A DNA stretch of 54,213 nt, filler included, from Dimargaris cristalligena (taxonomy: Eukaryota): assembly GCA_003614675.1 (NCBI GenBank). It is 2 parts of 2 records of this genome, joined end to end, with 100 filler letters (N's around TTAATTAATTAA, not from the genome) between each part and the next. Parts side by side here need not be neighbours in the genome. Positions count along the whole stretch, not along the records: positions 1 to 27,063 come from ML002524.1; 1 more part is not named here. The stretch is one strand, 5' to 3'. The translations under genes and the position numbers were made by a program. Positions 2,521 to 10,856 of the stretch are shown here, in pieces. The notes beneath the pieces were generated by a model, which was not told the DNA's origin, made no database searches, and saw only the letters and a list, made by a program, of their open reading frames with translations. Numbering within the stretch: position 1 is the first letter of the stretch; every line of letters starts with the position of its first letter.

Positions 2521-3087
2521 CCTTCGGTTTTTTGTCGGCAAAAAAAATATGCCGGGGGTGGTTATATGGAGGGGGAAGAGGAGTTGGTACTTTACCATTT
2601 TTATTCCGTGTATTACAACAGAGGTAGAGGGAAGGTAAAGACTGCCAGATAGCAACGCCATTTACACGCAGGTTACCATTTAGGAATGAGTACGAGTGTA
2701 ATACAAGTCGACAATTTTTTTGCTTTCGCATAATGGTTTAACCCGCAAAGCAGGATTTGCAACGATTGGGGTAGTGGGCCGAGGAAAAAAGTACAAGTGA
2801 ACGTTGCCAGGTATCTGGTGAATGGGCAGTGGTAGTGGTGTACCGGTGAAACTACTGGAGAAGTCGTCAACTATAAAACCAAGGCGCCCCGTATCAAGTA
2901 GCTGGACACCGCCGTATGATAATTATATCTATGTTTTGGTATATTGTGCTCTAGGTTTACATTCTGTCTTTTTTTTGTACACCACATTTAGCCGGACTAT
3001 TCTGCTGATAACTTGGTTACTTACAATTTCCTTTTTCTCCACCCGATTTCCTTTACTCCTGTTTTCTTGATATTTCTACACTGCACC

Positions 3088-4920
3088 ATGCAGCCTCTAC
3101 GTCTGAACATTTTGGTCTTGACCTCATTCGGCCTGTCCCTCCTCGCCAGCAACCACGTTAGCGCCAGCGAAAGTAGCCGGCGGTTGACCAAATGGAAGAA
3201 AAGCCTGAAAAATAAGTATGCTAAAACAATGAACAAAATGCGAGCTTACGCCCCGGGCAACATTAAACTCGACGACCAGAGTAGTGAAGAGTCCAACAAA
3301 GCGGTGACTTCTGTTCCAGGCGATAAGTTAACCAGTCTACCCAATGAACTCTTGAACAATATTTTGGACCTGGCTATAGAGCCGGGGTCCTTCCGCCAAA
3401 CTTACCCTGGGCTTATGTTGACCTCCAAAGCCATGGCAGCCCACGTTTTAGCCCATCCTAGTGGTGCGATACTAGTAAGTGTCAACGGTATTTTACCTTT
3501 GTCACCATATCCGAATTGTCCCAATTCATAGATGTCACCTTTGCCTACGCATGCCAGTGAGCTAAAGAAATTCAAATTATACACCCGCCACCACAATTTT
3601 GTAGTCTAGTAGTATTTTATTTAAATACTCCTACATGATATACTATGGTCATACTTGTGGTTATTAGCCGGTACATTAATTATACCTATTCTACTATACT
3701 ACATTATTTAGCCAACCTACCACAAACTTCAAGTCGGCTTAAAACATTATCGAGCTAGTGGCGTGTTCAAGGTTCGTAAGGGAACTATAGTCCCAGCTGA
3801 TAAACCGGTATCCAAATTGGTGTCAATATCCCGTAATTTCAAAAATGGGGTTAAGCAAACATTCAATCCCTGGCAAGAGTTACTTTATCACCAATTTGCC
3901 ACCACACTATGGCGGAGTGCCAGTCGTTTTGTGAGCTTCGCCTGCGATATTGTGAATACCGATGGGGTAGCAAGGTTGAATCCCCATGAAAACCCCCTCA
4001 CAATGATATATCTCCGTGAGACCTTGGCAATTGGTCGAGACTTAAAAATTTTCCAGAAGGGGGCGCCGCACTTCATCGATCCCAACCAACTGACGCAGCA
4101 GACACTGGAGAAGCAACTGCCGCTCCTAGCCCTTGTTGATACTCATAATAATGCCACTGACCTCCTCCAGGTCTTTGACACGCTAGTGGACCCATCATTT
4201 GATTTACTCATTCATCGGGACTGGGTGAAGCCATCCGACTCAAAATCCGACTATGCAGAGGGTCCCTTGCGGAATATTATCAGACTGCGCCAGGTCCCTA
4301 CATTTAGCCTTTTTTCGGGGGTTTATTATTGGGACTTATTCGATACTCTGGCCGCTATCATCATGGCCCGGTTAGCCCTTACGGGACAGTACGATCTCTT
4401 TCGTAGTTTTATCTCGAGTATCCAGTCTATTGACAACTCTCACCACCCGTATGGCGGCCTTCGTTTTGGCAGCCCTGACTTAGGAAAACTGGCCGTTATG
4501 CTGAGTGCCATGACTCGCCAGAAGGAACTGGTGTGTATATTGCCCCACGATTTTTTAGGCAGAGACCTTAATTATGGGCTTACCGTGGATATTCCTGAGT
4601 CTAATTGTTTCATGGCCGATGAAATGCGCCAAATGGGGTTGATCACGAGTGCAAGGTTTCTGGAGGAGACTCTGGAATGTGCGGATTACGAGTCGGATGA
4701 ACCGTCTGAAACTGGCGGACAGAGGCCTGAGTTAGACTCCAGACCCCTCCGGCAATTGCGGCTCGTCGATAGTGGCGAAACTCCCCAAATGGGGGTGCCA
4801 GTTATCATTTCCGAGTTCGATGTTGACACCAGAAACGCGCTTACGGACCTGGGCCCATGGGAACACGACGAGCTTTGGGAGTATGGCCAATTGTTGGCCA
4901 AACAACAGCACCTTATGTAA
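3088..4920 (+). CDS. Predicted secreted protein with an N-terminal F-box-like motif (~554 aa). Exons 3088-3474, 3532-3600, 3712-4920
   Basis: ATG in gcaccATG context. Signal-peptide-like MQPLRLNILVLTSFGLSLLASNHVSA. F-box-like LTSLPNELLNNILDLA...LMLTSK. Two phase-0 GT-AG introns (3475-3531, 3601-3711) join ORFs 3013-3531 and 3763-4920 into one open frame. TATAAAA at ~2872. Confidence 0.75.
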
Positions 4921-5654
4921 TAGAGTAGAGCTCACTATGAGCATCTACAAATGACATTTTATTTCATTGGCCTACAACTTGAATTAAAGGACTTTCGTTG
5001 AAACAACTGGCCCACACCCTTTTGCAAGGTGGTACTTACATAATAAAACTAAGGCCTCGAATTCATTGATGGCTCTACACAAACAACTTATTTCCGAGGA
5101 ATGTACAATGACTATATGGGGAGCGTGCGGTATGCCTGAATCACCAAGAAATCGATTGATATGGCGGATAATGCTGGTTCAAAACGAAATTCCTGGATAC
5201 ATTCCTATACACCATTTATTTGACGCTATATACGGTCGCATTAGATTACATCTATATTTTTCCGCGTTTTTATTATAGTACTGGAAAGGTAATGGGGCTA
5301 CCATCGTGAGCCCATATGGTTTATATCCTAGGTCCATCAAGATCTACCCCCTCGGTATATATTTGAAATCTCCTTCCACCCCCAGGCTTCCTTGAAGGAT
5401 TGCGGCTTCTTCGGTTTCGTCATGAGAGTTCAGGGTAACTCCGTAACACTAGATGGCTTTAAATCACTCTGCCAGAAGTCCGTGAACCTTTTTTTACGAC
5501 TTATACAGAGAACAGTACTAATTCTTTAAGGTTTTATTTATAGAAATACAAAAACAGTTGAATACATGTTTATGATAACATGCTATGCTATACACCTGTT
5601 GAAAGTGGGCCCATGGGGTGGGATAGTTACAGATCAAATCATTACAATATTTTA

Positions 5655-7742
5655 CTATGCCTCCGACTCGGCCAGGGTCGGAGGAGCCGAATAATCGGCG
5701 TTGTACCGGGCCAGGGTATCGGTGACTAATAAATCAATTACCGCGTCCTTAACTTCTTCGAACATACCCACGGTGTACCGCTCCTGATGAGCAACTTGGT
5801 CCTGCAGGGGTTTTTTCTTCCGAATATCGATATTAATTTCGAAAATGGACTCCGCCGAAATATACTTTGTGTAGAAGTGGCGGAACGCCCCGCGAAGGTG
5901 ATCGGGAACCGGGTCGTCCAAGGAGTGGGGCCAGACGGAGGAAATCGATGCTGGGTATGGTATATCCCGGACGAGACGGGCCCATAAATCGCGCTCAACG
6001 ACAGTGGCTTGAATGGCGCCCGGCAGTTGGGTGGACGTCAAGTGCGGTAGAACCGGGTTGAAGGGTGGGGGGTGGGGTTCTGCCAATGGAGGGACCGGTG
6101 CGTTGTTTTTGGCCCACCCGGCACTAGCCCCGGGTTTGGCAGACGGATCGGACGAAGGGAGATTAAGGGGGTTACTTGGGGTCGGACTCGGTGGCTGGAT
6201 GGCTTCGAACGGGGCCACCACCAGGGCCAAATCAGAGGCCGCGTTACTACCGCCACCATGGGAAAGAGCACTACTGCTGCTAGTGTTATATTCGTGACTA
6301 ACGGGGCGGGTGGCTGAACCCGAAGTGGAACTTATACTATAATGTAATAGCTCGGAATCAAATATCTCGGCCGCCATCGATACGGTGTGGCAGTGTTGGT
6401 GGGCTGACCCATGGGCGTTTTCGTGCTTGGGAACGGGTGGAATTTTCCGCTCGCGCTCGGGGGGATGGGGAACGACCTCCTCCTCCTTCTCCTTCTCAGT
6501 TCTCCGCTCTGTCAGCACCACTTCATACAGGGCCAACTTTAATATCTGGTAATCCAGTAGGAAAGTTGGGAGTTCGCCACAGTAGATGGAAGTGCAGAAG
6601 CGTCGGAAATCAAAATATTTGTCGGGATGGTTGATGATCCGGAACAAGGTCTGTCTATTAGCCGGCATCATCTGACGAGCCCGGGACATTTTGATACGTT
6701 GGATATGTCCCTTGTATAGCGGAAGGATTAAAAACATGAGGGTATACCATATGTACTGGGCGTAGCTGATAATCAGCAAGGCGATACCGGAGTTAGGTCT
6801 GGGGAGATCTAGACTATAGACAATACGATAAGCCAATTCGAGGACAAATAGGCCAAAGTAGTAAATCGTCAATTCCTGTCGGATCCCGAAACCGTCGTCA
6901 AGGTGGCGAAGGAAAAATAGAGTGGGAATGTAAATGATGATGAGAATGGCACCGGCCACGGCGGTATTGTAGGCAGACAGCCAGCCGAGGGAACAACCCG
7001 GATTGCCATGACTTAAGGACCTGTCCTGCTGAGTGGCCACAAACACGGAATAGACGATGCACGTATAGATGACCAGGGCGGCAGTAATGGCCATTAACTT
7101 AAATTTCAGTGAACGTTGGCCCATAATGTACCAGGGACGCCGCCAGGTCCGCTGCAGCGTCACCGACGGTTGGGATAGCCGGGATATGGAGACGCTGCGT
7201 TCACTTGCACTACCGTTACCGGCTTGCCCACCCGTCTGGGCACTATTCATCCGATTCTGGTCAGTAAAATTGAGTTGATGGCCCAGAACCTGGGCATGTT
7301 TGGCCAGTGCCAGCAGTTTAAGGGTGCATAGTAAAGGGATCGTTAAGGTCAAATGCACGGTTACAACGTTGGATAAATAAATAACCAGGCAGGGGAAGTC
7401 TTCGGCGTAATAGAGGGCGCTGGCTACTAACGAAATTATGCTGGCGATATTGCCAATCGTACTCAACGAAATGGACCGTTTTTCGTAAAACGGATTGTTG
7501 TGACCCCGGATGATGAACAGGGCGTTTAGGGAGATGCCCAGGGCGAGTGAAACTGCGAGAATGGGGTAGACTATCGCCCGGATAAGTGGGTAGTTGGCGT
7601 GCTCGTCTGGGGACAATCGACTACTGTGGCCAACGTATTGGTGATTGCGATGGTGCTGCAAAGCGGTCATTGAGTCGATGGTAGTCATTGCCCTAAGAAC
7701 GAGATGGTGGATCCTGTCGTTGGGATACATAAAGGTACTCAT
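5655..7742 (-). CDS. 7-transmembrane protein fused to a C-terminal RGS domain (GprK / plant RGS1-type), 695 aa, intronless
   Basis: Seven hydrophobic segments. DDGFGIRQEL loop after TM5, typical of 7TM-RGS proteins. RGS halves FRRFCTSIYCGELPTFLLDY and FYTKYISAESIFEINI...MFEEVKDAVIDLLVTDTLARY. Confidence 0.88.
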   Translation of the reverse strand: MSTFMYPNDRIHHLVLRAMTTIDSMTALQHHRNHQYVGHSSRLSPDEHANYPLIRAIVYPILAVSLALGISLNALFIIRGHNNPFYEKRSISLSTIGNIASIISLVASALYYAEDFPCLVIYLSNVVTVHLTLTIPLLCTLKLLALAKHAQVLGHQLNFTDQNRMNSAQTGGQAGNGSASERSVSISRLSQPSVTLQRTWRRPWYIMGQRSLKFKLMAITAALVIYTCIVYSVFVATQQDRSLSHGNPGCSLGWLSAYNTAVAGAILIIIYIPTLFFLRHLDDGFGIRQELTIYYFGLFVLELAYRIVYSLDLPRPNSGIALLIISYAQYIWYTLMFLILPLYKGHIQRIKMSRARQMMPANRQTLFRIINHPDKYFDFRRFCTSIYCGELPTFLLDYQILKLALYEVVLTERRTEKEKEEEVVPHPPERERKIPPVPKHENAHGSAHQHCHTVSMAAEIFDSELLHYSISSTSGSATRPVSHEYNTSSSSALSHGGGSNAASDLALVVAPFEAIQPPSPTPSNPLNLPSSDPSAKPGASAGWAKNNAPVPPLAEPHPPPFNPVLPHLTSTQLPGAIQATVVERDLWARLVRDIPYPASISSVWPHSLDDPVPDHLRGAFRHFYTKYISAESIFEINIDIRKKKPLQDQVAHQERYTVGMFEEVKDAVIDLLVTDTLARYNADYSAPPTLAESEA

Positions 7743-8853: not shown

Positions 8854-10856
8854 TTATTTATATACATCAGTATTACGGAAACTAGAGTTATCCTTCATTG
8901 AGTCGTTGTGTGCCTTGTATTCCATGATGGTATCGGCCGGTAGGTTAAGAATGCGCTTCACCGTATCCCTAATTGACAAATAGCAACGATGTTCCGAGAC
9001 CCGAATTAAGGGCGGGGTATTGCAAGCATATGATTAGTAGAATGTTGGGGGGGAGAGTAAAAGAAGACACGTATGCAATACTCGACCTGGCTTTGGGGAT
9101 GTGCAATATTGGGCTGAAAGGGCGCAATAGTACAATGATAATGGTGCAGAGCTATCCGGACTTACCTGATGCGGAGATTAATTCGACCGTCTTGCGCCGA
9201 GCTATTCCACAGTGACAGTATATCCTCAGAGTTACGGATAGAGAGGACGGCCCCGCAAATGTCATTTCCTACATCAAACTGATCACCAATAACCGCCAAC
9301 ACCTAGTGAAGTGAGAGTGGATTGGTAATGTAAAAAAAAAAAGATACGATGGAATTGGTGGTTAGCGAGGTTCACCTCGTCTTCAAGCCACCAATATGAA
9401 AATTATCCAATAGAAATGAAACATTCATTCGGTAATTAAATTTCGGATATTAATTAAGATCGGGGACACTAATCAATGAGAGTAACTTACCAAATCCTCC
9501 CAGTAGCGGCTGGCGATGCCCTTCTTAAGGCGAACAATCCATTTACCGCCGTTCTTATTGACGTCATCCTAGAGACCCATACCAAGACCAAATGTACACA
9601 AATAATTAGTAAACGTTAATAAATGATGTTGGCCGATTGGTGGCTAAAGATTAGATAGTCGGTACAAGATATTACAGTTGGCTATTTTCAATATAAACTA
9701 AAAATGGATCGCCTCTGAAATCGGAAACCTGGAGTTTCCCGGGGTTCACGATAGGTCAGCTAGTCTAATCGAGAACACTTACCTCCCAGACAGGGCGGAC
9801 GCCTTGCTTAAACAAATGGTAGTCCGAGATGGTCGGTAGTTCGTGGGGACGACGCAGATGGCAGTAGACGGCCCAAAAGTTCTCTATCGAGGAAAATGAG
9901 GCAATTTTCTTCATAGCACTCTCATAGTTGACAATTTTCTGCCCGGGGGCACGGTGCATAAACCAAAACACCCAGGTGAACTGAAGGGGGTGAATCCCTG
10001 AGCTTGAGCCGGCTTTAACATTAGCCAGGGGTAGCAGATTCGCGTGAGAGAGCGACTTGTTTTTTACACTCAAACTAGTGGAGCTGCCGCTGTTGGTGTC
10101 ACGGTAGAAAAGGTGATTCGAGGCGCCCGGACCACCGCCCGATGTTCCAGTGCCACCGGTCGTTAAGTTGCCCATTGCAGCGGCTGTACCGGCGGCCGAG
10201 AAGTTAAGACTGGCCCCAGTACTCGCACTAATGTTGGTGGACGAGTTGTGCCGGGGTAATGTGGCAGAGTGGCCGTTAGCGGGGTTACTTCCGGTGGCTG
10301 TATTAGAATTAGAGCCGTTAGAGGAGCCAGTAGTCGCACCAGGGGTACCCGTAGTAGGTTTCCGCAACTTTGATAGAGCGGGAGTGGAAATTTTACGCTG
10401 CAACTGGATTAATTTGGCGCTAATGCATATAGTTAACGAAGAAAACGGCCCAGAAAATGACCAATTGTGGATTAATAAGGGTTTAAAGGCAGAATAAGTA
10501 GTATTGGGGTAGATATCCCGGGAATGGTGCAGTGTATATACTGGGGAGTCTTCCTAGGAATACAGGCATGCCCAAATACTTGGAGGGAATCTTCGGTGTA
10601 CGCCTGAGTGGCATATAGACTACATAATTAAATAAGAACTATGGCAGCCCAAATAATGGATGAAGTCGGCGATATAAAAAAACAAAAGTAAGAGGTAATG
10701 GTGAAACTCAAATAGGTCGCCTCGGGATAACCAGGTAGTCGTGGGTCGACCGACTAGAGTTACATCGAGTGTTACTTACGATTTACGGACGTTGTTATTC
10801 GAGGATTGTCCGTTGTTCAACGATGCTGTGGCAGTACCCGCTTGAGTGGATTCCAT
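8854..10856 (-). CDS. EIF4E2: Class II eIF4E (4EHP/eIF4E2/nCBP-like), ~347 aa. Exons 10856-10780, 10419-9783, 9568-9491, 9302-9166, 8968-8854
   Basis: The spliced frame reads HPLQFTWVFWF, YESAMKKIASFSSIENFW, FKQGVRPVWEDDVNKNGGKW, RYWEDLVLAVIGDQF, ICGAVLSIR, ILSLWN and MEYKAHNDS...SSFRNTDVYK*. F/Y at the class I W43/W56 positions marks class II. All four introns are GTAAGT...TAG and the total length is 1044 nt. Confidence 0.93.

Follow-up and report, generated by a model that had tools for sequence, protein, structure and literature searches.

Does this locus encode a secreted protein that could capture the ubiquitin machinery of another fungus? The gene in question lies near the start of a 54,213-nucleotide stretch of DNA from Dimargaris cristalligena (assembly GCA_003614675.1; two parts of the genome joined through filler letters), which is referred to here at its full length as the window. 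A first-pass annotation had proposed that the gene product, carrying a signal peptide followed by an F-box-like motif, is a candidate effector that hijacks an SCF (Skp1-cullin-F-box) ubiquitin ligase of the host. On follow-up this effector interpretation was found to be a reasonable, testable hypothesis that is partly supported. The gene belongs to an expanded, diversified family that is restricted to one species in current databases. The reading preferred here, which is held tentatively and falls short of an even chance, is that the family consists of secreted effector candidates in which a divergent F-box-like module would recruit host Skp1 after haustorial delivery, while a variable helical domain would select the host targets.

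The family was delimited with the C-terminal 402 aa (amino acids) of the 531-aa product as the query (HMMER, 1.84 billion representatives), and 32 proteins were recovered at E<=1e-3, 19 at E<=1e-10 and 9 at E<=1e-30. These are counts of representative clusters at 50% identity, drawn from two annotated assemblies; because some of the short members are partial or model a locus a second time, the gene count is put at roughly 25-30. Identity of the paralogues to the gene is 18-38%. All 32 clusters are named D. cristalligena, and the expectation of an expanded, species-restricted family in a parasitic fungus, here a haustorial mycoparasite, was thereby upheld. A profile search from the family alignment returned only 5 matches, all known Dimargaris proteins, and the N-terminal 135 aa used as sole query recovered only the gene itself. 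One scan of metagenome contigs of the Joint Genome Institute (JGI) gave 0 confirmed relatives among 128 pattern matches, and tblastn with the family proteins located no further copies in the window outside 2900-5000. In UniRef the label 'F-box domain-containing protein' stands on 7 of the 32 clusters, given by a naming method that was not seen. Dimargaritales are described, in an excerpt of PMC9866270, as parasitising Mucoromycota and Ascomycota by means of an appressorium and haustorium.

Two observations on the family models were recorded separately. Family proteins of the two assemblies differ by 0-3.2% at the amino acid level, most being 99.5-100% identical, and this variation was not used as evidence; the pairs P0040/P0025, P0046/P0013 and P0047/P0016, in which 2.6-3.2% of the aligned residues are different, may consist of rapidly evolving members or of near-identical paralogues, or the gene models themselves may differ. 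On one other contig, models with adjacent locus tags (P0019/P0032 and P0027/P0052; H4R33_004153, H4R33_004154; BJ085DRAFT_29002, BJ085DRAFT_36153) represent either a tandem pair or a single gene split by annotation.

Features of the family were counted in a set of 20 long models of at least 474 aa, one per locus, the longer of two annotations being chosen. A Sec signal as defined by von Heijne has a positive n-region, a hydrophobic core of about 7-15 residues, a polar c-region and small residues at -3 and -1. Signal peptides were called with a rule-based script using these rules, in place of a trained predictor. The protein of the window gene begins with MQPLRLNILVLTSFGLSLLASNHVSA, followed by SE after the predicted cleavage site, with V at -3 and A at -1. 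The signal-like N-terminus ending in VSA before S, as first described, was thus confirmed by translation, and the pattern is kept in 17 of the 20 long paralogues. The n-region is net-positive in 16 of these 17, and in all 17 small -3/-1 residues follow a few positions after the core. From its sequence, the family pattern predicts that most of the protein is translocated. The gene's protein contains no segment of transmembrane strength after the signal (19-residue Kyte-Doolittle maximum 1.23) and no endoplasmic reticulum (ER) retention end of the HDEL/KDEL type. The signal-peptide pattern and an LPxE-type helix occur together in 12 of the 20 models, and since both recur in independent, diverged paralogues of about 20-37% identity, they are taken to be more than chance.

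Between signal and module lies a linker whose length in the paralogues ranges from about 10 to about 100 residues and whose composition there is acidic or Ser/Pro-rich, mostly Ser/Pro/Asp/Gln. The first-pass annotation had seen in the linker of the window gene a basic stretch that might act as an uptake or nuclear signal. The stretch, RRLTKWKKSLKNK, is present as described, but the role assigned to it found no support: it is private to this gene, being conserved in no aligned paralogue, and it was modelled by AlphaFold2 (AF2) with a predicted local distance difference test score (pLDDT) of about 40-50.

The F-box-like motif reads LTSLPNELLNNILDLA...LMLTSKAM at aa 81-116. Among the long models an LPxE-type helix was found in 13 of 20, in 11 of them alongside a downstream L..(S/T)(S/N)(K/R) signature. 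When 11 motif segments were aligned, the Pro was invariant and the Glu kept in at least 90%, and no other feature of the N-terminal half is as well conserved among the paralogues as the motif. L-P-x-E and the later S-K/R stand at what we take to be F-box-like spacing.

The module was also modelled alone (AF2, aa 78-143, 66 aa, with paralogues). The isolated model consists of short helices plus the linker helix (pLDDT 84.2), and the same helices are present in the full-length model. With Foldseek against the PDB, 7 of 9 matches were F-box proteins (E 3-9). In a VIA comparison with 48,161 chains, F-box proteins or Skp1 complexes made up 15 of the best 50 rows (Z 3.0-5.4), including the Skp2 F-box (1fs1_C, root-mean-square deviation (rmsd) 2.2 over 41/41 residues), 5ibk_E (rmsd 2.0 over 45 residues) and FBXL2 at 26% identity. 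A second structural comparison listed F-box proteins in 5 of 5 rows. Skp2, Cdc4, Fbw7, beta-TrCP, FBXL2, FBXO31, Fbs1 and Skp1-bound Legionella AnkB are among the proteins matched. In the ESM Atlas, aa 76-146 gave 10 structure rows, 9 of them clusters annotated as F-box (TM 0.50-0.62, feature score 0.88). In these model-based comparisons the enrichment for F-box proteins is strong and each individual score weak; the motif appears, in prediction, to fold like an F-box. Because all scores are weak and based on prediction, the module is called F-box-like here and was not filed as an F-box member.

A C-terminal region of about 400 aa had been left without assignment, and it stayed so: neither a Pfam family nor a match to a solved fold was obtained. 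No Pfam family was found at E<=10 for the part encoded by exon 2 (402 aa), nor for the C-terminal domain in any of 17 members. The full-length AF2 model (mean pLDDT 77.2, predicted template-modelling score (pTM) 0.79) gave 0 Foldseek matches at E<=1e-3. Its best VIA score (Z 7.4) was to designed helical repeats, and a local match (Z 6.3, aa 382-451) was to helices of the carboxymuconolactone-decarboxylase type; both were treated as generic helical similarity, which is common for helical models. Language-model neighbours of the domain in the ESM Atlas were all ankyrin-repeat clusters (0.77-0.85, below the 0.9 bar), and no ankyrin protein was present among 50 VIA rows for the whole model. An ankyrin assignment was kept as a lead only, there being no Pfam Ank match and the model helices of 20-22 residues not fitting; a very degenerate ankyrin-repeat origin of the domain is possible. 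Because the conserved columns are nearly all hydrophobic and include no invariant polar residue, a binding scaffold fits the domain better than an enzyme.

Two cysteines of this domain, C428 and C452, are always about 24 residues apart. Both are present in 24 rows of the alignment and both absent from three related rows (P0040, P0035, P0029), and no complete row keeps just one of them. In the AF2 model they flank a helix-turn-helix (helices 425-436 and 440-450). Since the pair is kept or lost together and flanks this element, a C428-C452 disulfide staple is likely, and it would suit a protein passing through the secretory pathway.

As a separate observation, many members carry a C-terminal extension ending in ..(V/I)P.(D/E)F-COOH (IPSDF, VPPDF, VPEEF, ILHDF, VPEYF). 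Carriers among the 20 long models are P0039, P0040, P0046, P0050 and P0051, with P0013, P0027, P0029, P0034 and P0048 added by eye; the subgroup of the window gene is without it. A conserved free C-terminal motif of this kind suggests, from sequence, a docking or sorting signal in those members.

The architecture would accordingly be read, from N- to C-terminus, as a cleavable signal peptide, a flexible linker that varies in length, a three-helix F-box-like module of divergent sequence and a new, mostly helical domain of about 390 aa with one disulfide. In the preferred reading the signal peptide would send the protein co-translationally into the parasite ER for export, whereby the F-box would be kept from the parasite's own Skp1. 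After release at the haustorial interface the protein would enter the host fungal cell, where the module could dock onto host Skp1, a protein strongly conserved across the fungi, and thereby join a host SCF ubiquitin ligase, the variable C-terminal domain choosing the host proteins to be ubiquitinated. Actual secretion, host entry, Skp1 binding and substrate recruitment are steps that we infer. A more specific form of the proposal, in which some 30 Sec-secreted SCF mimics would have evolved from the F-box genes of Dimargaris itself, cross from haustorium to host and mark different host proteins for destruction through the new helical domain, is more speculative and is offered as a doubtful possibility.

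A number of results weigh against an F-box effector, and most of them concern the module itself. Pfam scoring of the motif region, proposed as a check with the first description, missed the threshold. No Pfam F-box was matched in exon 1 at E<=10; the excised 66-aa segment scored E=0.12 against PF00646 (12.8 bits, cut-off 20.5), in an alignment spanning only profile positions 1-14 of 43, the first helix. Only one of 17 full-length members had an F-box-type match at E<=1 (P0030, PF12937, 16.6 bits, cut-off 24.3). Of the 11 excised segments, 3 matched PF00646 (best E 0.0031) and 1 matched PF12937 (E 0.00029), none being shown at the cut-off. The canonical F-box signature includes V-C/S-K-R-W, and its Trp is not retained in the family consensus. 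A profile of the 11 motif segments, run against PDB sequences, found F-box proteins in 0 of 15 matches at E<=10; its top matches, polysaccharide deacetylases over a 22-residue stretch only, were set aside. LPxE could be a mere helix-capping motif. The structure matches are all weak, with VIA Z values within the range common for helical models, and they rest on a predicted model. Outside the module, no LRR (leucine-rich repeat), WD40, Kelch or Ank match was found by Pfam in the 17 members at E<=1, and the linkers of the aligned paralogues share no conserved uptake motif. Lastly, the motif is missing from 7 of the 20 long models. The claim of an F-box-like motif accordingly stood in the recurrence of LPxE and in the predicted fold, and fell below every Pfam threshold.

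Several of these results would be expected if the proteins were secreted or cell-surface proteins acting outside the host cytosol, with the F-box-like helices serving as an N-terminal structural cap that makes no contact with Skp1. Such proteins might reside at the haustorial interface or in the cell wall and act as binding or toxin-like proteins. The signal peptide kept in most members and the coupled cysteine pair, which fits an oxidising compartment, would be accounted for, as would the sub-threshold Pfam scores, the motif profile that recovers no F-box from the PDB and the members that do without the LPxE helix; in addition, module and C-terminal domain are confidently placed side by side as a single body in the full-length model (pTM 0.79). 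Against a cap, however, the module is the best-conserved part of the N-terminal half at about 20-37% paralogue identity, a simple cap needs no F-box spacing of L-P-x-E plus S-K, the nearest solved structures of the isolated module are overwhelmingly F-box proteins, and F-box clusters are its neighbours both by language model and by structure in the Atlas. On this balance a cap is considered unlikely, and it is the most serious competitor of the effector reading.

An F-box protein normally works within the cell that produces it, and the family might therefore comprise substrate adaptors of the parasite's own SCF, with the F-box in the parasite cytosol and the hydrophobic start either serving as a membrane anchor or bypassed by initiation at Met48 or Met51, which are in frame upstream of the module. 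The basic cluster lies 10 residues past the core, and by the positive-inside rule it could favour a cytosolic C-terminal part. The hydrophobic start is missing from 2 of the 20 long models that are complete (P0049 and P0044, which have different starts) and also from P0006, which is 5'-partial; these are the three long models free of the signal pattern. Yet the cores, of 8-15 residues starting at aa 6-20 in the 17 signal-bearing models, are too short for a membrane span, and the signal region of the window gene reaches a 19-residue Kyte-Doolittle maximum of 1.44, under the usual transmembrane threshold of 1.6. The n-region is positive and the region after the core neutral or acidic family-wide (charge of the following 15 residues -2 to +2), so the bulk of the protein should be translocated, and the basic cluster is private to one gene. 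A signal-anchor reading for the family was rejected on core length and flank charges. Conservation of the signal among paralogues implies that it is translated and under selection, and a coupled cysteine pair would be unusual in a cytosolic adaptor. Adaptors of the parasite's own SCF are thus judged improbable, and the secreted-effector reading is retained for what follows.

The gene model itself was drawn from the reading frames of the window, public annotation and homology. On the + strand the gene runs from ATG 3088, in the context CACC-ATG and with no earlier in-frame ATG downstream of the stop at 2989-2991, to the stop TAA at 4918-4920. Joining 3474 to 3712 gives 129 + 402 = 531 aa, and this product is the public protein P0004 (BJ085DRAFT_29405 of D. 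cristalligena, 100% identity). The other public annotation, P0005 (H4R33_001165, 448 aa), has the same 3474/3712 junction and 83 further residues removed. As these contain the family-conserved W183 region, the 531-aa model was considered better than the 448-aa model. In an alignment across the junction, the gap between S-K of the motif and the next conserved Tyr is equal in the gene and its nearest paralogues. Two open reading frames (ORFs) spliced into one protein, as first supposed, were thus borne out by both annotations and by paralogue spacing, and a one-intron, 531-aa model is favoured by the same annotations and the paralogue alignment, the junction being placed by annotation and homology. 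Searches of sequencing runs and papers gave no RNA or proteome data, and the contigs of the four runs compared, all of them DNA, showed no joints.

The first-pass annotation had drawn two introns and a protein of about 554 aa, and this did not hold; annotation and paralogue alignment give a single intron of 237 nt. The composition of the proposed mini-exon (Table 1) is ambiguous (GC 0.42, and 0.52 at third codon positions, against an exon median GC of 0.49 and 0.28-0.39 for introns). No paralogue aligned across the junction has residues corresponding to its 23 aa, and it would break a confidently modelled helix (AF2 pLDDT 83-94, aa 121-140). The two-intron model was dropped because of the missing counterpart, the split helix and the single intron used by both annotations. 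The extra intron of P0005 falls at approximately 3775-4023 of the window (aa 151-233 of the 531-aa protein) and is, from the alignment, probably mis-called. A strain from a second study (contigs of one run) differed from the window at two sites in 2.1 kb, namely C>T at 3592, within the intron and the proposed mini-exon, and G>A at 4449, a synonymous change in the third position of a Pro codon.

That the two ORFs fail to form a single expressed gene, or that the family is a decaying, non-functional repeat, is very improbable: no RNA run was found and the public annotations differ on the internal intron (531 vs 448 aa), but the 531 codons are open with canonical splice signals, many diverged paralogues share the architecture and keep its structural residues, AF2 models the protein with confidence, the protein is identical in two assemblies over 448 aligned residues, and the sole exon difference in the second strain is synonymous.

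Table 1. Features of the gene and its product, by position in the window
Feature	Position	Strand	Remarks
Exon 1	3088..3474	+	129 codons, aa 1-129; same as the N-termini of P0004 and P0005
Signal-peptide-like segment	3088..3165	+	aa 1-26; n-region MQPLR, 13-aa core ILVLTSFGLSLLA, c-region SNHVSA, then S
Basic stretch RRLTKWKKSLKNK	3178..3216	+	aa 31-43, within low-confidence linker aa 27-80
F-box-like module, exon-1 part	3328..3474	+	aa 81-129; helices 86-96, 102-112 and 114-122, AF2 pLDDT 80-87
Intron	3475..3711	+	237 nt, GTAAGT...TTTAG, phase 0, GC 0.35; canonical splice signals
Mini-exon proposed by the first-pass annotation	3532..3600	+	69 nt, 23 aa, open frame; most likely intronic
Exon 2	3712..4920	+	402 codons and TAA, aa 130-531; 100% identity to P0004 over 100% of query
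Linker helix extending the F-box-like module	3712..3756	+	aa 130-144; AF2 helix 128-144, pLDDT 83-94; helix also in the isolated model
Family-defining C-terminal domain	3760..4917	+	aa 146-531; mostly helical, small beta part at aa 479-494
Cys428 codon TGT	4606..4608	+	Cys in 24/28 aligned rows
Cys452 codon TGT	4678..4680	+	24 residues past Cys428; Cys in 24/27 rows

Among known systems, the closest analogue in logic would be SSGP-71, a protein family of the Hessian fly (Mayetiola destructor) that PMC4617103 summarises after Zhao et al. 2015, followed by the bacterial F-box effectors; in excerpts of the same summary, SSGP-71 effectors are described as F-box proteins that interact with host Skp proteins, and Ralstonia RipG7 as binding Arabidopsis SKP1-like proteins. 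As far as those excerpts go, SSGP-71 resembles the Dimargaris family in belonging to a eukaryotic parasite, in being large and diversified, and in that an N-terminal F-box is followed by a C-terminal binding domain that varies. It differs in that its C-terminal domain is of the LRR type, whereas the Dimargaris domain is helical without an LRR match, and in that the host is a plant there and a fungus here; no sequence relationship was found. Binding to Skp has been demonstrated for SSGP-71, whereas here it is proposed from a predicted module whose F-box scores are below Pfam thresholds. SSGP-71 proteins reportedly carry secretion signals.

Ralstonia RipG/GALA, Legionella AnkB/LegU1 and Agrobacterium VirF are exported F-box proteins acting on a host SCF ligase, as is proposed here. 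The structure of Legionella AnkB with human Skp1 (5k35_A) was matched by the module in VIA (Z 4.2, rmsd 3.0, 61 residues aligned). The bacterial effectors differ in being delivered by type III or IV systems rather than with a Sec-type signal peptide, in having LRR or ankyrin C-terminal domains where the 17 members searched gave no LRR/Ank Pfam match, and in bearing no sequence relationship to the Dimargaris family. On the F-boxes of the cytosolic adaptors Skp2, Cdc4, Fbw7, FBXL2, FBXO31 and Fbs1 the predicted module and linker helix superpose. These adaptors, however, have no signal peptide, reach Pfam thresholds and carry WD40, LRR or other known substrate domains, in contrast to the conserved signal peptide, sub-threshold F-box and domain without a known-fold match of the Dimargaris proteins.

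SCF mimicry is, to our knowledge, so far known from bacteria, viruses and one insect. Effectors of early-diverging fungi, those of mycoparasites in particular, are almost unknown. In the full text of open-access papers and bioRxiv, no secreted fungal F-box effector and no account of Dimargaris F-box proteins was found, and an excerpt of a comparative study (PMC8146833) states that support for a role of the F-box in eukaryotic pathogenicity is lacking. In the more speculative form of the proposal, with SCF mimics evolved from the parasite's own F-box genes, Dimargaris would possess the first F-box effectors described for a fungus, and ubiquitin-ligase mimicry would for the first time be seen in fungus-on-fungus parasitism. 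If the preferred reading is true, the mimicry itself would be a known strategy, and what would be new is a secreted fungal family with a new substrate domain. Should host Skp1 be bound, SCF mimicry would have arisen also in a fungus that attacks fungi, some thirty natural degraders would be at hand whose substrate-binding fold is new, and the long-standing puzzle of an F-box that enters the secretory pathway could be tested directly in a culturable two-fungus system. Should the module not bind Skp1, there would still be, in a biotrophic parasite, a large family of putatively secreted proteins that is restricted to one species and whose fold is unassigned.

The other ORFs of the window are ordinary genes (eIF4E, HMG box, adaptin, RabGAP-TBC, Myb, Zn2Cys6), and no Skp1 gene is encoded in it. 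Immediately downstream of the gene, at 5655-7742 on the - strand, lies an open frame of 695 aa in which several long hydrophobic stretches can be seen by eye and no Pfam family was matched at E<=1e-3; judged from its sequence, it may encode a multi-pass membrane protein. The frame at 9765-10553 on the - strand contains an eIF4E domain (PF01652, E 2e-22) that starts at residue 189 and is preceded by a long Ser/Thr/Gly/Asn-rich stretch.

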